Origin: Saccostrea cucullata
Taxonomy: Eukaryota
Assembly (NCBI RefSeq): GCF_032062105.1
Contig: NW_026937195.1
Location: 1 to 64,000, forward strand
Length of the DNA stretch: 64,000 nucleotides
Reading direction: 5' to 3'
Part shown: positions 21,409 to 63,200 of the stretch, piece by piece
Position numbering within the stretch: the stretch's first letter is position 1
Layout of the letters: each line of letters starts with the position of its first letter
Made by a program: the position numbers and the translations under genes
Notes under the pieces: generated by a model
Seen by the model: the letters and a program-made list of their open reading frames with translations, nothing else
Told to the model about the DNA's origin: nothing
The model's database searches: none

Positions 21409-23085
21409 TCATTGCAGATACTTGATTTTCTTCACTTGTGTGGTACTATATTGAACAACGAACGGATTGTCATTTGTATCTATACACAGTCCATGGGGAT
21501 CACTCAGTCCACAGTCTATGTAACAGAGGAACTGTCCATCCTGGTCTATGATGTGGACACAGTCATTGTAATAATCAGCTGTGAGGATGTGACTCTGACT
21601 GTCTGTAGTGATTCCTACCGGATCGAACCATTGGTTCTTTGGAGCAGGAGTATGTCCAGTGTACCTGAATCTGAGTTTCCCGGCCTGATTGACCACCACT
21701 ACTGCTCCAGCTCCCTCATCAGACACACAAATATCAAGGTTTTTATTCTCAGTTATGTACTTAGGAAATATACAAAAACCAAGAGAGTAAAGAGATTTCC
21801 CTTCATCATCAAACTGAATGGTTTGTTTCTCTGTTGAGCCAGAGTAACGGACAACTTTAGTTTGTTTGTCATCATCACTGCGCATGATAACCAGGAGGTC
21901 ACCAGAGGAGGTAGTACAGATACTCTCAGATACCCAGTTCTGCTGTATTCTGATCAACTCTTCTTTCTCTTCATTCTTCATAATGTTCATAGTTCCATCA
22001 CTTTGACAGTAATTAATGTAAATAAGATTTTTTGTCACTGCTATGTCTATTGGTGTGTTTTCTGGCTTGGTTGTGATTGACTTGAGTAGTGATCCCTGAT
22101 TGATGCTGTAGAGTTTCATAGTGCTGTCACCTCCACTTGTCCAGATTTCTTCATCACTCAGGCAGGCCAAATATGAAAGTGCATATCCTGTGTCTATGAA
22201 GGTTACAGTCTCTGGTTCATCAAGCAGCTGTTTGACAGGAGGAGAGGATTCAGCTTCTGGTGATTTCTGTGTAGTCTTCAAGCTGTAGCTATCTTTATTA
22301 AAAGTTAAAGAACTTGATGATAGAGCCCCAAAATTTTTACTAACTTCTTCTCCTTGAATTTTTCCTGGCATGAATTTTGGTAAAGATGGCACGATTTTGT
22401 ATGGAAGCTTTCTGTATATGTCTACATCAAACTCAAGACTGAACAATTTTGAAAAGTCATTAAATTTTACGATAACATTGACTCATTCAATGTCATTCTC
22501 CATGTTGGAAAATTTCTGCTTTATTTCATCCAGATGTTTTTGTAGAGTTGTAACAGTGAAGTTTTCATCTCATCAACTTCAACTTTAGTTTCTTGACAAG
22601 TTTGTCAATTTATCCGTGCCAGTCCTCTCCATGTTTTGTTATGGCTGCTGACAGATCTCTATATTCCTTTTCTAACTGACTCAAAGTGTTTTGTACATCA
22701 GAGGCAATGTCCTGGTAAATGGGATAAACTGTTTCTTTAAATTCAGTTTGTTCTTGAATTATTTTGTTCTTTTTTTCATCCAGAATTTTCAAAATTGTCG
22801 AAGATGTATGACCTAGATGTTGATCAGAGGCTATGCAAGTTTTGCAGATAGGAATGTCACATTGATTACAGTACATGCTACATTTTTCTTGGATATGAGA
22901 GATGCATCCAGGGTGGATGGGGCGGATTTCCTGACTTTGTGATCCTTGGATTCTTCAGATATGATGTGTTCTCCTACACAGGCCTTACACAGGTTGACAA
23001 GACACGTATCACAGTGCACCTGTACCATAGCAGTCACACACAGGTCACATCGCATCACACCCTGGGTACTGGTACTGGGATCCAT
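21409..23085 (-). pseudogene. B-box x2 / coiled-coil / NHL-repeat TRIM-like (RING-less) pseudogene, paralogue of 43218-44867
   Basis: Three ORF pieces collinear with the intact paralogue: CDLC..HCDTCLVNLCKAC, YCNQCDIPICKTC, PVGITTDSQSHILTAD. Lesions: ~15-bp deletion plus frameshift near 22920, GAA>TAA at 22610-22612, frameshift near 22560. Confidence 0.85.
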
Positions 23086-23568
23086 TATTAGACGTTATGC
23101 CCTTAGAATATAAAGAAATCTTAAGAATATTACCGAAATGTTTTCAAGTCTAAAATTTATCGCTGATTTTACCTATATGAAAAAATTATTATCGCACTTT
23201 TTGTCGAAAGATTACTTATTCATTTTTTTATTGAAAAGAAAGCAATCTTTTAGATTTTGCTATGATTAAATGACTTTGCATATTTCCCCAACCCAATATT
23301 TAAAATTAATAAAAAGCTGTGAACATTTGTGAGAAAATGATGTATGCAATTGGAAAATGCAATCAGTCATTAGGAAACAGATACATGTGCGATATATTTG
23401 AGTGCCTGTAAACATGACAAGCCCCTACATTAAAAGTTTCTGGATATAAAATTTAAAAAAATGAATTTTTAATTCAATATGTTGAAAAAACTATATAATG
23501 ATATACAGTGTATGTTGTTTCAGAAAATTAGATAAAATATAAACAACATTTTAAAGGAATATCCTACC

Positions 23569-26022: not shown

Positions 26023-26992
26023 TTTTTATGCCCCCGTAAACGAAGTTTCGGGGATATATAGTTTTTTTGTCGTGTCCGTCCGTCTGTCTGTCTGTCTGTT
26101 TGTCAGCAAAAACTTTAACCTTGCCTATATCTTTTGATTTAGTGGAGCTATAACATTCATATTTCACATGTTTATTCCTTGTGACAAGACATTTCTTTGG
26201 GTACCACAAATTAGACCTTTTGACCTTGACCTTGGAGATTGACCAACTTTAACACAAAATTTTCAATTTTTACTTTGGCTACATATTCTGAATAATATAT
26301 TCCAGGAGATTTATACTTGACATATGTATTTCTTGGGGAAAGACCTTTCATTGAATACCAACAACCTTAACATTTGACCATGATCTTGGAGATTTCCATA
26401 CCTATGAAAAACCTTTAACCTTGCTTACACCTTTTGAACAATGAGAAGTAGGGCTTTCTTACTTCACATATGTAATCCTTGTGAAAAGACTTTTGATTAG
26501 ATATCAAGAACCATGACCCTTTGACGTTGACCTTAGGGTTTGACCTACTTTAAAAATACAACATTGACCACAATTTTTTTTACAGGTTAGGACTAGGGCA
26601 TTCATACTTCACAAATTTAATCCTTGTGACAAGACCTTTCATTTGATATCAAGAAACTTGACCCTTTGACCTTGACCTTGGATTTTAACTTCTTTTTACA
26701 AACTTTAACCTTGACCATAACGTTTGAACGGTAAGGCCAGTGCTTTCATACTTCCCATACGTAATCTTTGAGACAAGGCCTTTCTTTAATAACCAACAAT
26801 CTTGACCCTTTGACCTTGACCCGGAGTTTTTCCTATCTTATAAAATGTTTACCCTCGTGGTCATAACTCTGGAACAGGTGTAGCTAGCGTTTTATATTTG
26901 GCATTTCTTGTGAAAAGGCCTTACTTTTGGTACCAACATATTTGATCTGCATTTTAGAAAGCTTAATCTTCGCTATGTTGCCATACGAGAGC
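26023..26992 (-). mobile_element. HINE-like element, head truncated at the junction with the virus-like cassette
   Basis: Reverse complement of the 52521 family; lacks the first ~25 bp (AACAAGATGTGTTTGTGAAACAC). Confidence 0.8.
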
Positions 26993-27141
26993 TCATGAAT
27001 GGGTGAGAAGACATCACAATGGGAGAATGGCTGCGTCAGTAGTAAACAAAACGTAGATGGAAATGTAAAAAAAAAAACAAACAAACATAAGTAATTCATG
27101 TTTTTTTTTTTTGCACACGACCCTGTCTTATCCTCCAAGGG

Positions 27142-27177
27142 TATAAATACAAGGTGTAAAGGATGATCATCATCAGT
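27142..27177 (+). promoter_or_regulatory. TATA box + TCAGT initiator upstream of the Rep-like/macro ORF
   Basis: TATAAA 27142-27147, TCAGT 27173-27177, ATG 27184. Confidence 0.5.
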
Positions 27178-27183
27178 TGGGGC

Positions 27184-28073
27184 ATGTGGTTGAGTAAAAG
27201 ACAGTTTTGTAAGAGAATTTCTAGAATAGAAGAAGAAGAAGAAGATATGGAGATGGATATAGACAAATTTACCTTATTAGAAAAGAGAATGACTGAACCT
27301 ATGGGGGATCATGAAGCTCCTCAACAAAGAAGAATAGAGTTGAAAAGGCTGGATGCGGAACCTCGAGTATTTACCCATGCATGAGAGCGTTCATGATCCT
27401 AAATTTCCAGACAGATGTCACAGGATTGCCATCAATTGGACCTTTATCATTTCTGAGGTGAAAGAAGAAGAAGATATAGAAATGTTTCTGAGCAATGAAG
27501 AGGATTTTCAGTATTTGATTTTACAAAAATAAAGGCATCCCTGGACAGGAGAAATGCATCAAATCCGGGGATTCATTCAAATGAAAAAACAGGTAGGGGG
27601 ATTGGAAATGTGTAAAGTTCATTGTACTGCCAGATTTGCTATGTCTCACATTACCCTAGAATTAGAAAGCTTGTTTTACAAGCAAGGGGTTGACTATGAA
27701 GAATGTGGAGTTGTAAAACCTGAGGAGAGAAACAAAGAATTGGACCCCAGAGATATAGGAATTCCAGGCACTATTAGGGTGTTTACCTCACAAACACCTG
27801 TGGTCATTTGTTTACTAGCTCAATGGAATTATGGGAAAGCAAGTCACAGACCTAAAAGAATTCCCATTCACTTATCAGGACACAGAAGAAAACAGAGAGA
27901 AATGGTTTCAAGCTTGTTTACAAGAAATGGGAACTTTACCTTACCAGATTTATGCTTTTCCTTATCAAATAGGGTATGGACTAGCCGGTGGAAACAGGAC
28001 TCATTATAGACATTATATTGAACAATTTGTACACACTTATGACAAACAGGTGTACATTCTTCATCAACATTAA
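27184..28073 (+). pseudogene. Disrupted ORF (~295 aa): acidic N-terminus, CRESS-virus Rep-like endonuclease domain, TARG1/DarG-type macrodomain (C-terminal two-thirds)
   Basis: Reconstruction across frameshifts (~27343, ~27868) and TAA 27530: AINWTFIIS...FQYLILQK*RHPWTGEMHQIRGFIQMKK...FYKQGVDYEECG, then PGTIRVF..VICLLAQWNYGK..DTEENREKWFQACL..AFPYQIGYGLAGGN. Confidence 0.65.
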
Positions 28074-28271
28074 GTGAATGTGTGTATGTGTGTATGTGTG
28101 TTGTTGTTGTTGTTTTATGTGCTATACAAAAATGTGTCTGTTATATGAATTCAATGAAAAGAGGGACTCTTTTTTTTCTTTTGTATTCTTTTCAATGTTT
28201 ATTATTATTATTTGAAAGAAAATATTAAAAAAACAAAAAACAAAAAAAAAAAAAAAACAATGACCTGGTGT

Positions 28272-28547
28272 TTTTGACTTGAAACACAAAACGTTTCTTT
28301 TTTACCACTGTATAAGAAGGTAATCTTATCTTTTGACACAAACAAAAAGTTTCTTTTTTTTTTACTGTATTCAAAGGTAATCTTTTCTTTTGACACACAC
28401 AAAACGTTTCTTTTTTCTTTTTGACTATATTCAAAGGTATTTTTTTTCTTTTGACACACAAAAGTTTCTTTTTACCCCTGTATAAAAAGGTAATCTTTTC
28501 TTTTGACAAACGTTTCTATTTTTTTTTTTTTGGACTGTATAAAAAGC
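28272..28547. repeat. Five imperfect ~50-60-bp tandem units between convergent ORFs
   Basis: TTTTGACAC..AAAACGTTTCTTTTT..CTGTAT.AA(G/A)GGTAATCTT repeated at 28272, 28331, 28388, 28449 and 28501. Confidence 0.8.
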
Positions 28548-29418
28548 TTACTCCCGGAATGGTCTCCCTCGGAACTCCCGTCGCTCAAAGAGGGGTGGCC
28601 GCTGATTAGAGCTAAGCGGCTCCATGAACTCCGGTCTTACGGGTGGTGGTGGCGGTAGCGGCGGCAGCGGTCTGGTTGGGAGAGGCGGTCTTCTGTGGCG
28701 TGTTCGCCTCAACCCTCTTACGCCGCGGGGGGGCCAGGTTTCTGGGTCGCCGACTTCTACACAAAGGGTAGCAGGAGGGGGGTGATGACTGGGCATCCAG
28801 CACTTCGGAGCAGCGGTAACAGGCGGACCTGTTCCTGCACTCAAAACATATGTAATTAGAGGGCTGGTTCTCCTCCAAACACACAGAACACTGGTCGATT
28901 CTGGCCTCTGGAACCTGGATCGCCCAGACCGGTACGTGTCCCCTCGGAACCGGTGATACCCACACAGCAGATCTGGCTGGGGATGGCTGCTCCTTCTTCT
29001 CCGATGAATCGCTGGTAGATCAGTCGGAGTTCACGGGGGGCTCCCAGTCTGACTCTGATCCTCCGGCCACTCCCTGGAGTTGGCTAGGAGACCAGGTCTG
29101 GGTGGTCGGTCATGGAGGGGGGAACGGGCTCCTCGGAGAGTATCCAGGTGGGGGCGACGGGTTTCTGTAGGCCTCCGGGCTACTCAAAGGGGCCGAGTAC
29201 AAGGCAGCTGGTGACGTAGACCTCTCATCTTCTTCTGATCGTCTGTAAGGCGTGGGCCTCCTCGTCTGCCTTCTTCTTCTTCTCCTCTCTCGTCTTCCTC
29301 TCATGCTCGGAATGTCTCTGGCTAGCCCCAGTGTCACAAACGGCCATCTGGCCAGCTCCCGGCCTGTCGCTACATCCCTCACTATCCAGACGTTGAGTAC
29401 TTCAACACCATTAATCAA
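28548..29418 (-). pseudogene. Disrupted Arg-rich / Ser-Pro-rich protein with an all-cysteine RING finger (28758-28890)
   Basis: ORFs 29110-29418 and 28612-28965 are in the same frame, separated by stops; CSVC-x10-CFEC-x5-CYRC-x12-CYPLCR; Pro-rich tail in a shifted frame; 5' end interrupted by a HINE. Confidence 0.65.
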
Positions 29419-29429
29419 ATAATAGTTGG

Positions 29430-29862
29430 AAATCGATAGATCCAGAGCTTATATTATTTTGTCCTGTCTGTTTGTCTGTTTGTCTGTTTATCTGTTTGTC
29501 TGTCTGTCTGTTGTCAACTTTAACCTTCGCCATAGTTTTTGATCCATGAGAGATAGAGACTTTATATTTGGTATACATACTTCACTAATTAAGCTCTTAA
29601 ATTAAAATGACACCAAGTTTAATGGCCTTGTGACCTTGACTGTGACCTATATGCTAAAAATAGATTTTTCCACTTTTTGCCATAACCTTTGAACCATAGG
29701 AGATAGTGACTTCATATTTGGTATGCAAACTCTATTATTAAGTTTTTTCAAACGACACCAAGATCAATGACCTTGTGACCTTGACTGTGACCAATATGCT
29801 AAAAATAGATTTTTCGAACTTTGTTGCCGCCGGGCGCATAGTGTTTCATAAACACATCTTGT
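29430..29862 (-). mobile_element. Short HINE-like insertion inside the virus-like cassette
   Basis: Minus strand ACAAGATGTGTTTATGAAACAC head, two GACCTTGAC units, CTGT microsatellite. Confidence 0.8.
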
Positions 29863-30038
29863 TTTGCATTATTTATTTCTTAAAGACTGACAAATGTTCT
29901 AACTGTGGAATTCTCCTCCGGAATCGTATTCGATCGGCTACTAGACTCATCCAGGAACTTCTCCGGTCTTCGGGGGCAGATCATAGATTTGATTGAGGCT
30001 GGTATTAAAAGTCACTGATTTCCTAGCCTGTGTAAATT

Positions 30039-30410
30039 TTAACCCATTCCGTATTGAATACATACTTTCTCCATCGCATCTAATTCTGCCACAGTAAAAT
30101 CACTTTTGCCGCTTGGGGATGGGTCAGGAAACTGTTCGGCTATCCGAAATAATGGGTCAGGCTCACTCCGTAACATTGTTTTCATACGTTGACATAGGAA
30201 ATGTAGTGTAGCTAGATTCCTCACGGTCGTATGATGTGATAAGGCCAGGCATTGTAACCACAAATTCTGAGTTGTTTCCATTATAGTGGTCGCTTTCTGA
30301 AATACTTGTTCTGCCTCCGGGGGGAGAGCTTCTTTGTTGTTCTCTTTCCATCGCACTAAACAATCATACCCATCTAAAATCAAAGACTGGGTGTGTGTAA
30401 GGGTTGACAT
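30039..30410 (-). CDS. Orphan 123-aa ORF of the virus-like cassette
   Basis: Intact ATG-to-stop ORF with protein-like composition; TATAAA on the minus strand at 30451-30456; no family recognised. Confidence 0.55.
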   Translation of the reverse strand: MSTLTHTQSLILDGYDCLVRWKENNKEALPPEAEQVFQKATTIMETTQNLWLQCLALSHHTTVRNLATLHFLCQRMKTMLRSEPDPLFRIAEQFPDPSPSGKSDFTVAELDAMEKVCIQYGMG

Positions 30411-30603
30411 GATAGTCAGTTGTGAAGAAAGAACCAGATTTTTTTTATCATTTATACCTCCCTAGAGACGTACACAGGACGCATAGTTCAGTGAGTCAGG
30501 GAAAAAAAGGTAAGTAAAACTAGCGAGGGTGATGCGCACGCGAGGGGGGGGGGCAAACGTAAGTCCAACTTATTGATGCACACGGCCTTACAGATCCTAC
30601 AGG

Positions 30604-30636
30604 TATATAAACCAGAGCAGGGAATTTAAGATCAGT
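30604..30636 (+). promoter_or_regulatory. TATA box + TCAGT initiator (one half of a divergent promoter, 30411-30673)
   Basis: TATATAAA 30604-30611, TCAGT 30632-30636 (30-nt spacing), ATG 30674. Confidence 0.55.
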
Positions 30637-30673
30637 CTTCGTTGGCACTTTGAACTTGACAGACGTAAAAAAT

Positions 30674-31283
30674 ATGGCAAACATGCCTGAGACACAGGGT
30701 CCCGTCGGATTTGATTTGGGAATGTTTAATCTTCCAGAATTCATGAATAAAGAAGATATGGGCATCTTGACTACAATTCTGGATGGGATTGTCAACGTGC
30801 TGACTGATCGGAAAAACTACAACGTCAGTGAATTTTGTTTGATCCGTGGCAGATTGTCCAGATTAGAAGTCACCAACATTTCAGAGAAAGTGAGAGGAGG
30901 CTCTTACCAGGAAAAAGAGGACAAGGGTCCGGAGATACCAAGAAAACAAGACAGACGGACCCATGCTTCATCTGTAAAGAATTAGGGCATTGAAAAAACA
31001 GGATTAGTGCTACAAGTGCGGTAAATTAGGACATTGGGCTAATAAGTGTCCAGAGGAAGAAGAGGATCAACAATTCTTGAAAGAAGTAGAAAAACTGAAG
31101 AAAAAGCCTCAAGAACACAAGACCCCAGGACACCATACCAAACCATTAGTGAAAAAAGCAGAAAAAAGGAGAAAAAGTCTCAGGAACACAGCAGAGAGAT
31201 TCCCAGCACCCACAAGAGGAATCTGCCCGCCCCAGACGGAAAAGGCACAGAAGAAGAAAAGTAAAACTATGTATGTATTTTGA
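30674..31283 (+). pseudogene. Disrupted protein with two CCHC zinc knuckles and a basic tail
   Basis: CFICKELGH* at 30964-30993 and CYKCGKLGHWANKC at 31008-31049, the latter in frame with ORF 31077-31283; frameshifts relative to ORF 30674-30985. Confidence 0.65.
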
Positions 31284-31498
31284 CTTTGATTAAAATATGT
31301 TTTGGATTGTGTATTTTTGTTATTGTTTTTTTCCGTTTTCAGAAAATGCTGCTCGGCTGGCTGGCTGTGAATGAAACGTGACGTCAAAATCACATATTGG
31401 AATCGCTGCCAACACGTAGTAGCAGCGTATTTACCTAGTGTAAAAGGCTAAGATTTTTTAAGTCTATGCCTCTAAGGAGGAGTCCCCCCCACTCATCG

Positions 31499-31707
31499 GA
31501 CCTCCCTATCCCCACCCAGTGGCTGTCATTAGCTGACCTCCCTATCCTCACACAGATGCTGTACTTAGTTGACCTCCCTATCTCCCCCAGGGGCTGTACT
31601 AAATTGACCTCCCTATCCCCCTAGCCAATCAGAATCCAGCTTTTTCTACTTCATTTGCATAAAAAGTGCACTCAGTTGACCTCGCCAGCGCGGCGCCGAG
31701 TACTACT
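31499..31707. repeat. Subterminal 36-bp-period repeat array plus CCAAT and octamer motifs (putative TIR/origin)
   Basis: GACCTCCCTATC at 31499, 31535, 31571 and 31606, GACCTC at 31678; CCAAT 31625; ATTTGCAT 31653-31660; ACTACT 31702-31707. Confidence 0.8.
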
Positions 31708-56845: not shown

Positions 56846-58913
56846 ATATAAATTATTTTCCAGTCTAAATCGTTGTAATGCAGAATTATTGGAAACTGGT
56901 CTCTGACCAGTGAGCTAAAAAATAATATTAAATTATTTTCCAGTCTATATCTTTGTAATGCAGAATTATTGGAAACTCATACTTGCTACAAAAATTATTT
57001 ATGGCCTGAGGGTATGTCATGAATTTGACTCAAGGTCAATTTGGCGAGTAAAGGTAAGTGATAGAGAATGGTGAGAAAATATCTTGGTTATAACCTAGCA
57101 GAGGCGAATCTTTGGAAACTCGAATTACTTGTACAAAAATTTCCTCTGACCTGAGTGTGTCATGACCTTGACCCAAATTCATTTTCGCAAGTTTGAATAT
57201 TCTCTGGCAGATAAAAAGATGTGGAATTGTTGTCAAATCAATACAACTTAGCAGCGGAGAAACATTGCAAACTAATACTTGTAAAATGTTACAAAAATTG
57301 TTCATGACCTGATGGTGTTTTCTACCTTGACACAATAGGTCTTCTGTGTAATTCAAGGTCACTGGTATAAAAAAAGGGCAAAATTAAAGTCTTTAATTTT
57401 CTAATGGAGTAATATTGTGCGTCCATTTTTCAATTAAATGTTACTTATCGGACATAGTTATGCCTCTTGGACTTAGAAAAATTACAATTATTTGTGGAAG
57501 GGGGCTTAAGAATAATATCCAATCCTAAGCCAGAAAGAATTTCTCCAAAAATTAATATTTAATTTTAAATGCATAAAAATTAAGCTTGGAAATGAAATTT
57601 TTTCATGCAACAATATTCATCTTTATAAGATCCAAGGATTTTGAAAGTCTTAAAAAAGGTCCTATAAAAGTTGAAATTTGTACCCTATAAAAGAAAGAAA
57701 ATAAAGTTTTAGAAAAAATAAGATTTTCTTGATTCCAGCCTTAGATACCAATGCTTAATAGCATGATATAAAATAAGAATGAATTGATTTGTAGTGACCT
57801 GCAATAATAGCAAAAGCCTATTAGACTATGTATTATAGAATACATTACAGAAATATAAGACAAAAATGCCAAATAAGTATAAAAAGCGTGACAATTTCTC
57901 TGAATGCCTAGATACCTATATTTTACCTAAAATATTTTTGTTGATCAATTTGCAATTAGAAAATGCATTACTGATATTCCAATTCGCTTTTTCTGCAAAA
58001 TATTGGAGATTTGACAATTTTCCCAATATAATATGATTAACTTTAATCTTTAACTTTAAAGAAATACTGAGGATAAATCTACATAACTTTGTGGATTAAG
58101 AGATACTTTTATGAGTATTTTTGATTAACTGCTAATTTTATAAATCTGAGAAACAGACTACTTTAAGTGTTTTACAAACATCTCTTGTTTATTTTTAGCC
58201 CTTCTGTGCCAAAGGCTCAAAGAGCTAATGCTATGGCCATTTGTGCAGTGTGCGTAAACTTTTTAGTATATCATTCGTATATAGGTCGATGTAACAAGTG
58301 CAATATTTTAATTCCTACCATGCTCCAGAATAAAATAAATATTTATACTCAATGATTATTATTTACTGAGTATTATACAGATTTATACCTAAGTTATTTG
58401 AAAATAAATTATATTTTCTATCTCCTTTAAGGAATGGTGCATATAGACCTTCTAGTTTGTCATTTGACATTTGACCTGGGAAAGAATATCTCCTAAAAAG
58501 ATATTTGGACCCATGCTGAATACAATTTACTGCAAAACTTAGCTGACTAAGAGGGAGACACTGAGAAAGGAGCAAGATATGGACAGACAGACATGGTGAA
58601 TACAGTATTTTCCCTTCAAATATTTTTAATGAAATAAAAAAAATACTTGTTTTAACAATTTTTATTTTTCTAAAATTGGTGATTTTCTTCACAAACATTT
58701 GTATGTAATAAAGAATAATAAGAACTTGAAAATCTCGAGATCACGTGACACCAACCGGAGATGGACGCTTAAAAATTCTGTCCGGTGTTTGGTCTGTTTT
58801 TGGTGCTAATTTGTTGGGATTTTTATTCCTGTCACTTGAATTTTGGACAACATACGTTCGTGAGTGTCTGGGATACCTTTTATATTATATTCTGTGAATT
58901 ATATACCCCGAAA

Positions 58914-60125
58914 ATGCAAAGGAGAGGAAGATCAAATAGTACAAAGAAAACGGCTGATAAGAGTTCACCTATGGGGGCAGGCAAGACTATTGATACGAAC
59001 TCACTACAAAGCGAAAGCCTTCCAGAGTCGGTCCCGTTAGATAGTGAAAAGGGCAGTGTAGCGAGATCACGGTCTGCTAATAACAAAACTGACGATCATG
59101 ACGCTGAAGAACACAGCCTAAATGCACAGCTTAAGTATGTCTGTGAACAAGCAGAATGTAATTATAATGAAATATCTACACTTAGGTCAGAAAACGCCTA
59201 CTTGCGCAGAGAGGTAGAGCTGCTGCGATCAGTGGTTATCAGGATTGACAGAAAAATGTCTGTGATGGACAATGAAATCACTGATTTGCGAGCTAGGTCT
59301 ATGCGTGACAATATTTTAATACATAACTATCCATATTCCCATAATGAAGATCTTGCTTCTACTATGCCAGAAATTTTTAAGCAAACACTAGGGGTAGACG
59401 TCAAATTCGTTAGAATTCATAGAAACGGAGTTCGTCCTCAGCACTCGGATCGACCAGTGTCTATCACGGCCAAGCTGATGGACGGTAAGAAAAAAGACGA
59501 AATTCTCAGCGCCCAGAAAATTAAAAAAATAGCGAAGGTTCCCTTGCCGTTTTACATTACCCCACAATAACCTCTGTCCATTGTTTCTGCCAGAAATAAA
59601 CTTTTTGACAAATCAGATTCTTTCAAAAAACAGAACATTACTGTGAAAATGTCAAGAAATAGCCTCACTTTACCAAATGGCGATAAATATAGCGAGGAAG
59701 TTCCGCTGCTCACCAGTGCAGATGTTTTACAAATCGAATCGTCTGAAACACAGAAATTAGATGACATTCCTACAAAAAGCGTAGATCCTGTACGAAAAAA
59801 TGGATCTGAATTCTTTGCCATTGGATCTGAGGTAGACTCGGTGGAAAGTGTTCAAAACTTCTACAAGAAGGCCTGCATCGACCCCTATGTCGCCAGTGTC
59901 GACAGCAGAATTTTAGTTTATAGATTCCGAGAAAACGATAAAGTGACTGAAAACTATCATGATGATGGTGAACATGGAGCGGGTCGACGCCTCCTTAAAT
60001 TCATGCAGGACAACCAAATCTTCAACGCGGCTATCATTGTGACGAGATGGATGGGGGATCATATTGGACCCGAGCGTTTTACCATCATGGAGAACCTCCT
60101 GAACGATGTTGCGAATCTACTATAG
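58914..60125 (+). pseudogene. LINE ORF1-like protein (coiled coil, RRM-like, CTD) fused to an IMPACT/YigZ UPF0029 domain; single in-frame TAA at 59568-59570
   Basis: ORFs 58785-59570 and 59643-60125 share a frame; EITDLRARSMRDNILIHN, FVRIHR.G, RPVSITAKL ORF1 motifs; DDGEHGAGRRLL..IIVTRWMGDHIGPERF IMPACT signature; intronless; GGAGATGGACGC-type 5' UTR from ~58739. Confidence 0.8.
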
Positions 60126-60260: not shown

Positions 60261-63200
60261 GGCTTCGGGGCCACCAACCCTGAAATTTTCTCACATCTGA
60301 GATTTTACAGAAAATCAGAGATTTTCTGACCAAACTGTGCCACCAAATAAATATTTTTCAAACTCACACTATTCTTTTGAGTTTTTTTCTTATATCTTAT
60401 ATATTTTCAAAAGCGCGTGCCACCAACGTTTTTTCCGACTCTGGTGAGAAAAAAATCAGAGTTTTCTCTGAAAATCTTGAGTTTGGTAAACAGTAAGCTC
60501 AAATAAAAAAACTCACGTGAAATCACTCACCAAAATGGCTGCAAGCTTTGTGAGAAGGCGTCTGCAACGTCGTCGGCGAAGAACTATACGTGTGCCTAGG
60601 AGGATCTTGGATCGTTCAAATCCACTGGAAGGTTTAGGGGATGGAGAGATATTTGAGAGATATAGGTTTTTCCCTGCGACTATTTTCTTCATTGTTGACA
60701 TGTTAAAAGATAACCTTGCTTTCACGAATCTACGAAATAATCCACTTACACCCCTTCACCAAGTCTTGGTCTCGTTGCGATTTTTCGCAACAGGGTCTTT
60801 CTACATCACAATTGGAGACACTTTGAATGTTTCAAAGAGTGCAGCTGGTAGGGCGATAAGGCATGTCACGGACCTTCTGTGCCAACTTACGAGGCGTTTC
60901 ATCAGCCTTCCCCGTGGAGAGGAGCTGCTGCATATCAAGGCAGCATTCCATAAGATTGCCGGTGAGAAAGCTTGTCTGCACATGACCATGACCTTCACTT
61001 ATTCTGTAGCTTGAGCCCGATCATTCACGCATTTCACCACATAATAGTAAATTTAAAACATAAACTAAAATATAACACAAATGTATCATGCAGTCTATTC
61101 ACACGAAGTTCTCCATTTGTACCTAAAGCATGCACATTTTTACAAGCACAGAAAAATCCATATATCAATCGTAAACAGTGCACTAGTACTATTACATGTA
61201 CCATAATAAATTAATCGTCATATAAAGCGCCTCAGTACATACCGAAAAATGGGATTTAATGGGAACGCTTGAACTAAATCTGCCCTCGAAGTAAAATGAC
61301 GTTTTGTTACAAGACATGTATAATTTATGAAGACAAATTAAAAACATATACTTTACACAAAGCACCCTAATGCCAAATGAGCTTAAAAGTGGTGCATGGC
61401 CCGTAGTGACATGCATTATTAAAATTTTATAAAAACCATAATCAATGTCAATATTTTGATGAAAAATTAGATCAAGGCTTTATATCATTAAAAACAAAGT
61501 GGTTTCATTCTGTTGAATTACATGATTTAATTGTGGGGGCTTTAAAAACAGGGGAAAGGGGGAGGGGCTTTATGCCTTAGTCAAAGGGGCGTATTATGGG
61601 GCAAATGCGGCATTAAAGATTTTTCTCATCTTCATACACAACTTCACAAATTATTTCATTCTATATACATATATTAACATCATGATAGAATTAATATGGC
61701 TTGATTAAAAATTACGAAGATGAAAATGCATACTTTTATTCATTACACATGTTAAATACCATATATTCTGGATTTTTTTTCTTGACTTTTTAAAAAAAAA
61801 AATTATTTGCAATTAAGAGAAATTTTTCATAAAAATGTAAAAAAAAAAAAAATCATGATTTTCGAAAAACCTTTCTCAGTTAAAACTTTGTACTCTGTCT
61901 CCTTTTCTTTGAGGATTTTTAAGATCAAAGGACAGGATATTTATATCCAAACCCTTACATGTACCTCTTTTCTCAGGATTTCCAAGTGTTGTGGGGTGTG
62001 TTGACGGGACAATGGTCAAGATAATAGCACCAAAAGTGAACGAGGCTGATTACATATGTCGCAAAGGTTATTATGCCATCAATGTGCAGGTACTTTGAAA
62101 TTTCAAAACTGAATTTCAAAAGATTGATTGCACTTAGTGTACAAAAAGTGGCCCCCGGTTAATTGCGCAAAAATAATATATAGAAAGTAACCCAAAATAG
62201 ATTAATAAAGCTATTCTTCTAGGTCTTAATTGCAACTTTGCAAAATTACAGGAATTAAAAGTAATTAAAAAATAAAGAACGAGGCTGTGTTTTGTAAGAG
62301 GGGTCACTGTAATTCATGAATTTCCATTGTATTTTTCAAATATATTTTTTTGATCAGTTACGCCATATATGGCTTTAACTCGAAAACATCTTAGTTGGAT
62401 ATAATTAATTTTTTTCATTTTATTTGAAAAAATACCCAAAAAATTCATATAAAATAGCTAAATAGCTTAAGAGCTAGTATCGACCTTTCAATGCTAAATC
62501 CCTTGTTTTAAAAGGATGACTCAAAGATCTATAAAATAAAAAGTTGGTGTGGCATTCCACCTTAATGTGACACAATTAAAACCCAACTCGGACAAGCGCA
62601 ACATTCCGGAATTAACACCCACTAGAGGGCTTACTTAATTACCTTAATTAAAACTAAAGCGCCGTTTTCAATGAAAATTTTTGCAAGTAATGTATCACAC
62701 TGCTAACAAGATATCGGTTAGGTGTAAAATTATTAAGATTTGAGTTAATTAGATAAAGTTAAAGGGGTTCAAAAAGGGACCACGGCACTATGCTCAAGTG
62801 GAATCATTCTTTTCTTCAAAATATTCTATAAAATCGACTTCTTTCGCCACAGTGAATTCTTAGTAACACTTTTCTCTCTCTCTTTCGAAAGGTTTATGTC
62901 TTCACATATATAAAATGATTTCAAAATATTTAAAATAGAAATTAAAAACATGCATTGGCTCCCAAAAATAAATCAGACTAAAATATGATTCCATGTTTAA
63001 ACAGTACTTAAAAATTTCACCATTTCATACAGATGATGTGTGATGCTCGATTTAAAATCAGGGACGTGGTTGCTAAGTGGCCTGGTAGCGTCCATGATTC
63101 CAGAATTTTCCGGGAATCACACCTCTGCAGAGTTATGGAGGAAGGTAATTAGGCCAATAAAAATGAATTTTTTGGTTCTCAGACCCTCCCTCATCTCTTA

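Follow-up and report, generated by a model that had tools for sequence, protein, structure and literature searches.

The closest case described for the locus presented here is found in avipoxviruses, where the genes apvRep-1 and apvRep-3, together with apvRep-4, represent CRESS-virus rep genes carried by a double-stranded DNA (dsDNA) virus; they encode the endonuclease only, have lost the HUH motif and the catalytic tyrosine, and occur as several paralogues (PMC10193959). According to the parts of that paper drawn on here, apvRep-1 is under purifying selection (0.23), and a decoy role has been proposed, which is weakened by the cytoplasmic replication of poxviruses, the purpose of the genes being left open (PMC10193959). 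The locus described below differs in belonging to an integrating invertebrate Maverick rather than to a poxvirus, and in being known from its genes alone. U94 of HHV-6 is a further nuclease-dead HUH domain in a dsDNA virus, as cited in the same source (PMC10193959), and differs in being derived from a parvovirus and in having kept its helicase. Among Polinton-related dsDNA viruses, HUH genes have been reported from Gulliviroviridae virophages, as circovirus Rep-like nickases (bioRxiv 10.64898/2026.10.13.758929), and from mriyavirus-like PLVs, as HUH endonucleases (10.64898/2026.06.19.733378). In the available portions of both texts they are treated as the replicase, whereas the present element has a pPolB, and its HUH domain is a predicted dead, accessory one.

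The window is a stretch of 64,000 nucleotides from Saccostrea cucullata (contig NW_026937195.1, positions 1 to 64,000, forward strand). A preliminary description made from its letters had reported a Rep-like endonuclease domain fused to a TARG1/DarG-type macrodomain, with the Rep domain steering the hydrolase in cis. The best explanation overall, with a probability of roughly 0.8, is that the fusion is an artefact, that a captured and catalytically dead Rep has been kept as a DNA binder, and that the macrodomain is a separate protein. Capture of this kind was known before in avipoxviruses; what is new is a dead CRESS Rep independently captured by a Maverick.

The Maverick element and the junction between its genes

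In the extracts consulted, pPolB, a packaging ATPase, an rve integrase and terminal inverted repeats (TIRs) are listed among the hallmarks of Mavericks, with AGTAGT//ACTACT as the end motif (PMC8097293). The features of the window are given below, those of the element first.

26989–31707, no strand: decayed Maverick/Polinton right arm; matches to other copies run from 26989 to 31707
27184–27366, plus strand: N-terminal 62 residues of a RepA-type gene, frame +1 (tblastn, translation); a frameshift separates the rest
27365–27754, plus strand: RepA remnant, frame +2, with its HUH domain at about 27428–27709; stop at 27530–27532
27751–27757, plus strand: deletion junction where the Rep-like gene continues into the mid-part of the macrodomain gene; copy-specific, with extra bases in sister copies
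27757–28073, plus strand: macrodomain remnant from about residue 63 onward, in frame +2 as far as about 27869 and thereafter in frame +3, with its stop at 28071–28073
28551–29019, minus strand: RING-finger accessory gene, frameshifted and in two frames (Pfam zf-C3HC4_3, E 3.3e-4)
29143–29445, minus strand: Maverick accessory ORF, its 5' side cut by an inserted repeat; 58% identity to another copy, no Pfam match
29446–29861, no strand: secondary insertion of a host repeat (family D20, ~145-bp units), seen as a gap in the matches to other copies
30018–30461, minus strand: Maverick accessory ORF with one stop; 62% identity to another copy
30677–31259, plus strand: coiled-coil and CCHC zinc-knuckle accessory gene (zf-CCHC, E 8e-7), broken by stops and deletions
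31499–31707, no strand: right TIR with the end ACTACT; four other copies match it in inverted orientation at their left ends
36037–40462, minus strand: decayed Ty3/Gypsy-type LTR retroelement with RT, RNase H and integrase
21409–23118 (minus) and 42978–44867 (plus): inverted B-box, coiled-coil, NHL (TRIM-like) paralogues, ~84% identical, the first broken
58773–60125, plus strand: ORF with a coiled coil (which we take to be LINE-ORF1-like), a stop, and then an IMPACT/UPF0029 domain (E 6e-15)
60490–61014, plus strand: transposase fragment (HTH_Tnp_4, E 0.02), presumably of Harbinger type

None of five core-gene queries (pPolB, ATPase, integrase, capsid and protease) matched 26989–31707, these genes being missing to the left, and the remnant keeps only the right end of the TIR pair. 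Sister copies carry DNA_pol_B_2 (E 6e-58), a Pox_A32 ATPase (E 1e-5), an rve(-chromodomain) integrase (E 3.5e-11) and a BIR-RING gene, and one of the four copies examined has both AGTAGT//ACTACT ends, 22.7 kb apart, together with an exact 6-bp target duplication. The element therefore agrees with known Mavericks/Polintons (adintoviruses) in pPolB, packaging ATPase, rve, TIRs, 6-bp duplication, a length of about 22 kb, and IAP and RING genes, and the preliminary description was right to place the Rep-like stretch inside a dsDNA element. It differs from them in its dead Rep and macrodomain accessory genes, which go unmentioned in the papers searched as far as their accessible text extends: the available parts of the adintovirus preprint, and of the journal version with one supplement, make no mention of macrodomain or HUH genes. 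Literature searches outside RepBase, subscription journals and bioRxiv supplements turned up neither a dead Rep nor a macrodomain described from an animal Maverick.

The capsid and protease genes of the element are presumably such, having been named from motifs in ORFs of fitting size and place. The protease candidate reaches E 0.077 to ASFV S273R and has no Pfam match, and the capsid candidate has no match in PDB or Pfam. As a separate observation, an A/T-rich array of imperfect ~40-bp repeats occupies window positions 28100–28550 between convergent element genes and varies among copies. The coiled-coil gene is gag-like, with tandem CCHC motifs, and is open in sister copies (e.g., L031:5696–6565), while two Mavericks lie nearly head to tail in L027:3900–9901, where a right end at about 4250 is followed by the next left end at about 6500 and a new pPolB. 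The terminal repeat in the window holds, at 31620–31665, AGCCAATCAG and ATTTGCAT, which we take to be reminiscent of the sites for NF-I/CCAAT and Oct-1 in adenovirus termini.

The peptides quoted in support of the fusion had been presented as one in-frame series, and this stands for the larger part of them. In frame +2 of the window, NWTFIIS (27434–27454), YLILQK, the claimed hidden stop (27530–27532), RHPWTGEMHQIRGFIQMKK and LFYKQGVDYEECG are followed in frame by PGTI..LAQWNYGK. The block REKWFQACL..AFPYQIGYGLAGG (..GYGLAGG) lies instead in frame +3, at 27870–28070, which reveals a frameshift that had been overlooked, and the Rep-like gene has its N-terminal 62 residues in the third frame, +1. 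The fused frame is thus damaged by one stop and two frameshifts, and the first ~60 residues of the macrodomain are absent, as the preliminary description had correctly observed of the macro fold.

Comparison with other copies of the element has clarified the origin of this arrangement. Of 40 candidates scored among 360 found, the window alone aligns end to end with a 951-base query, and the other matches break at query 605–611. When 25 distinct copies were examined for extra bases at window 27751–27757, both anchors could be placed in 19, and all 19 contain extra bases (range 283–1,219): 364–385 in 11 one-Rep copies, 283–293 in six, as measured from a second Rep-like gene, 1,050 in one and 1,219 in one. 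In sister copies the Rep-like ORF (~235 aa) is closed by its own stop codon, and a separate start opens the macrodomain ORF (~167 aa); of the 27 matching ORFs from 15 further loci none matches both domains. A 27-base junction probe, allowing up to three mismatches, detected the window alone in the 1.17-Gb genome. The junction is also missing from the 15 RNA-read joints listed for an oligo-dT run with a sister copy as reference, which had 256 further joints. The search for the fusion in intact homologues, which had been recommended, therefore returned two separate ORFs; this refutes the reading as a functional fusion, and cis-steering of a hydrolase along with it, and bears out the caveat, already voiced, of an in-frame deletion joining neighbouring genes. 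The fusion is, with near certainty, a deletion artefact in one decayed copy, and the stop and the two frameshifts mean that no fusion protein can be made from it. A deletion of about 370 bases took place after this Maverick copy integrated; the last part of the Rep-like gene was lost together with the spacer and the initial ~60 macrodomain codons, and the reading frame was kept by chance, a 1-in-3 event. Alignments overlap by 4–10 bases at the junction, which suggests microhomology-guided joining, and the junction may alternatively stem from local misassembly.

A functional protein in which a dead Rep aims a de-ADP-ribosylase at DNA could still be argued for from the in-frame junction, from the genuineness of both domains and from the activity of SCO6735-type enzymes on ADP-ribosylated ssDNA, as described in the sections used of PMC9411070. 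This interpretation retains a negligible probability, considering that 1.17 Gb of sequence contain the junction a single time, that none of the 19 other placeable copies has it, that the stop and frameshifts interrupt it, and that the macrodomain segments GDL and HQCN, including the Asn required by SCO6735, were lost with the deletion. None of the nine profile matches of the Rep domain (see below) carries a macrodomain, and no longer macrodomain relatives were found among 77 candidates, which is weak evidence. The fusion amounts to decay in a single copy and serves as a useful caution: a chimeric ORF met with in an old copy of a repeat needs comparison with sister copies.

RepA and RepB as probably captured Rep domains

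The Rep-like gene is a genuine stand-alone CRESS-virus Rep endonuclease (HUH) domain, without an oligomerisation or helicase domain. The window piece with X at the stop matches Pfam Viral_Rep at E 0.0024 and 18.5 bits, against a curated cut-off of 26; with X at the two breaks the Viral_Rep result is the same, the Macro family is matched in neither reading, and neither piece has a match in PHROGs. The resemblance to Rep that had been claimed is thus above chance in the window itself, with firmer support from other copies. Rep copies score below the Pfam cut-off, and two RepA copies have no Viral_Rep match. A profile of 13 natural sequences searched against 1.84 billion proteins gave nine matches, namely two family members and seven CRESS Reps (E 5e-7 to 1e-3), all seven of which pass Viral_Rep and four of which carry a helicase. 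Word-based protein searches, covering forms up to ~400 aa, returned the same four family members, longer forms being covered by the length-free profile search, and the ESM Atlas ranks Cressdnaviricota clusters first (0.95). A direct PDB sequence search gave no significant match for RepA; with the Rep profile, the top two PDB matches are the nanovirus Rep nuclease domain (E 0.84). No Rep relatives were found in viral contigs or metagenome contigs.

In Foldseek the predicted Rep model (pLDDT 72.6) finds, with E 7e-6, the Rep nuclease domains of circoviruses, as expected from the HUH fold that had been proposed, and aligns with PCV2 Rep at Z 14.6 and an rmsd of 2.2 over 99 residues, a match that is partly circular since the seven CRESS Reps stood in the folding alignment. 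With the circovirus and nanovirus Rep nucleases (PF02407; 6WDZ, 7KIJ, 6H8O), RepA and RepB share the fold (Z 12.4–14.6), the order and spacing of the motifs, and the Glu. They differ in the replacements Gln to Arg, Tyr to Phe and Lys to Gln, in an acidic, low-complexity N-terminal extension, and in having no oligomerisation or SF3 domain. The ORFs stop 10–50 residues past the domain and no helicase match follows it, in agreement with the lack of an SF3 helicase noted earlier.

The cores of RepA and RepB are 54–59% identical. At least three layouts of these genes exist among copies (L020:2449–3138, L063:2582–3325), taking Rep matches of at least 62% identity for RepA or at least 70% for RepB: RepA only, RepA with RepB, and, at one locus, RepB directly in front of the macrodomain gene, the 5.5 kb read there holding no match to RepA. 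Two RepB subfamilies, ~84% identical, have been distinguished.

In the RepA remnant of the window, motif I lies at 27437–27451, motif II at 27560–27568 (Q-I-R) and motif III at 27674–27685 (F-Y-K-Q). The H-U-H/Q of motif II is absent, with Q-I-R in RepA and H-V-R in RepB; the His is placed with an uncertainty of one residue, and on the ungapped register it is kept only in RepB, while the register of the Arg is firm. Motif III reads F-Y-K/R-Q in place of Y-x-x-K. The Arg of motif II and the Phe of motif III are invariant in all 13 aligned sequences, and all 14 motif III matches to an unconstrained pattern carry the Phe. The metal-binding Glu has been retained, and an invariant Tyr comes right after the motif III Phe. 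These replacements agree with the degenerate catalytic motifs of the preliminary description, and the HUH domain of RepA and RepB is, as predicted from its motifs, catalytically dead. That Tyr, the invariant Glu and the motif II His of RepB might be taken to indicate a nuclease still active through a tyrosine beside the canonical position. Such activity is highly improbable, as the Tyr aligns with the Cys of Y-C-x-K and not with its Tyr, the Gln ligand has been replaced by Arg and the Lys by Gln; in the text consulted on DCV Rep, Glu44, His52, Gln54, Tyr91 and Lys94 are all needed (PMC9973303). A circovirus (DCV) Rep with Tyr changed to Phe still binds its own origin, according to the same text (PMC9973303), which makes binding without cutting plausible for RepA and RepB.

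The element showed no stem-loop origin. The canonical circovirus nonanucleotide TAGTATTAC occurs once, between genes and without a stem, in five copies of one subfamily (L031:4740–4748), the chance expectation being 0.36 per element; it is absent from seven other copies and from the window. A captured CRESS origin has therefore been rejected, given the lack of a stem-loop round TAGTATTAC and its chance-level count.

The same genome contains two decayed endogenous CRESS copies (L053:1–1824 and L054:1–3246, both on the minus strand), with a Viral_Rep score of 60 bits, pieces of a helicase and a capsid-like ORF rich in Arg, which indicates that CRESS viruses reach the germ line of this host. A second capsid-like piece is present in L054, as in a tandem insertion. 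Their Rep is 21–25% identical to RepA and RepB, compared with 22–34% for unrelated environmental Reps; as the lowest identity of the Reps compared, this led to their rejection as the donor. No Maverick genes were found beside them in the three stretches read.

Selection has been assessed both between the paralogues and among copies. RepA and RepB cores give a dN/dS of 0.16–0.22 (Fisher p below 2e-7) at a dS of 1.3–2.0, which is near saturation, and 0.27–0.38 with flanks included. Among copies, dN/dS spans 0.24–1.25, with pooled values, from pairs that are not independent, of 0.51 for RepA, 0.44 for the macrodomain and 0.15 for the protease; among RepB copies it is about 0.5–1.0, with none of 10 pairs significant. 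Judging from these ratios, purifying selection has probably acted between the two paralogues and is weak among copies. Decay after insertion pushes copy-level values towards 1, and relaxed selection may also lie behind them. Among 150 RepB matches scored, 20 are 100% identical over 127 aa and without a stop, some of which could be duplicate haplotypes. Over the genes, one raw oligo-dT run reached a depth of 0.2–4 reads per base in either mate direction, like the rest of the element, and thus gave no gene-specific RNA signal; contigs from three other RNA runs do not distinguish RNA from DNA.

These data bear on whether RepA and RepB are near-neutral passengers, or act via protein contacts apart from DNA. 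The dN/dS among RepB copies, the RNA result and the finding of relatives in this family alone speak for this possibility, which is nevertheless rather doubtful: a paralogue dN/dS of ~0.2 at a dS above 1, with open frames and an intact fold over that distance, argues otherwise, and post-insertion decay may account for raised copy-level ratios.

The macrodomain gene

On sequence grounds the macrodomain likeness is genuine and its class is ALC1/TARG1. The stand-alone protein of the element matches PHROG 335 (E 7.5e-13) and Macro clusters in the ESM Atlas (0.96), and 147 phage protein records match it, with 27–31% identity among the 15 listed. A profile of two Maverick and four phage proteins ranks Bt_1257 and SCO6735 above TARG1, DarG and Poa1p, its best PDB matches being 5E3B, which is SCO6735, and 2FG1 (E 2e-20 to 4e-16). 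A direct PDB sequence search gave no significant match for the macrodomain, DarG models score 12.7–15 bits against it, and its predicted model (pLDDT 37.5) is unusable.

The TARG1/DarG type originally assigned holds at the level of the class, the nearer relatives being SCO6735 and Bt_1257. In the available text on these enzymes, TARG1 and DarG have Lys at the catalytic position, and SCO6735 has Gln85 together with Asn27 (PMC9411070). Mapped through a phage relative, the macrodomain described here has Gln at the place of Lys84/Lys80 of TARG1/DarG, which rules out TARG1 or DarG proper. Q86 and N24, the equivalents of Gln85 and Asn27 of SCO6735, are invariant in the macrodomain alignment, the window copy keeping the Gln alone. 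The Gln, the supporting Asn and the profile order together point to an SCO6735-like subgroup. With SCO6735 and Bt_1257 (PDB 5E3B, 2FG1), as far as the source describes them, it shares the H-x-C-N loop, the Gln at the catalytic position and the P-x-I-G-C-G-L-A-G-G loop (PMC9411070). It differs in being Maverick-encoded, in having phage proteins (27–31%) as the nearest sequences found, in the truncation of the window copy, and in being known from sequence. Taking these features into account, it is reasonably likely that the gene encodes an SCO6735-type hydrolase, which would remove host-added ADP-ribose and work independently of the Rep proteins.

Possible roles of the Rep proteins and their significance

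The history proposed for RepA and RepB would begin with co-infection of the host nucleus by a Maverick and a CRESS virus, whose rep gene the Maverick captured. Nicking would then have been lost, since cutting would harm the linear genome of the Maverick, and the invariant Arg may replace the metal and hold the phosphate. Capture of this kind, followed by loss of nicking and retention of the fold as a non-cutting DNA binder, is probable on present sequence data. RepA and RepB could occupy the origins of co-infecting CRESS viruses as a decoy, blocking the viral Rep. A decoy against CRESS-virus Rep is tentatively taken as the most likely target role, ahead of the displaced strand or termini of the element, although its chance is well below even. 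Mavericks work in the nucleus, and the compartment objection raised for poxviruses does not apply to them.

RepA and RepB may instead serve the replication or transcription of the Maverick, by binding the displaced strand or the terminal repeats in protein-primed replication. The model for this is origin binding in polyomaviruses and papillomaviruses, by the nuclease-dead HUH domains of large T and E1, respectively. The origin-binding domains of these viruses are nuclease-inactive and share the fold (Z 8–10), differing in that the helicase is kept. The duplication and retention of RepA and RepB fit such a role, as does the position of the Rep genes next to the capsid and protease genes. It is nonetheless somewhat unlikely: the predicted fold lies much nearer to ssDNA-binding CRESS Reps (Z 12–14.6) than to origin-binding domains, the element has no stem-loop origin, and Mavericks without such a gene replicate, to judge from the core gene set in the text consulted (PMC8097293). 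The remaining probability falls to binding of some other nucleic acid by RepA and RepB. Extending the decoy role, the Maverick could carry a counter-defence cassette that combines a duplicated non-cutting Rep decoy against nuclear ssDNA viruses with a phage-like SCO6735-type DNA de-ADP-ribosylase; this is a speculative combination and an unlikely one.

The nuclear Maverick represents a convergent second case beside the avipoxviruses, and with a domain of 110 residues the decoy idea becomes testable in vitro. It is implied that Mavericks and CRESS viruses encountered each other inside cells of this animal, in keeping with the view of Mavericks as real viruses. If the decoy role is true, the host could gain antiviral protection from dozens of young, open germ-line copies, a gain that would parallel the situation of protists with endogenous virophages.
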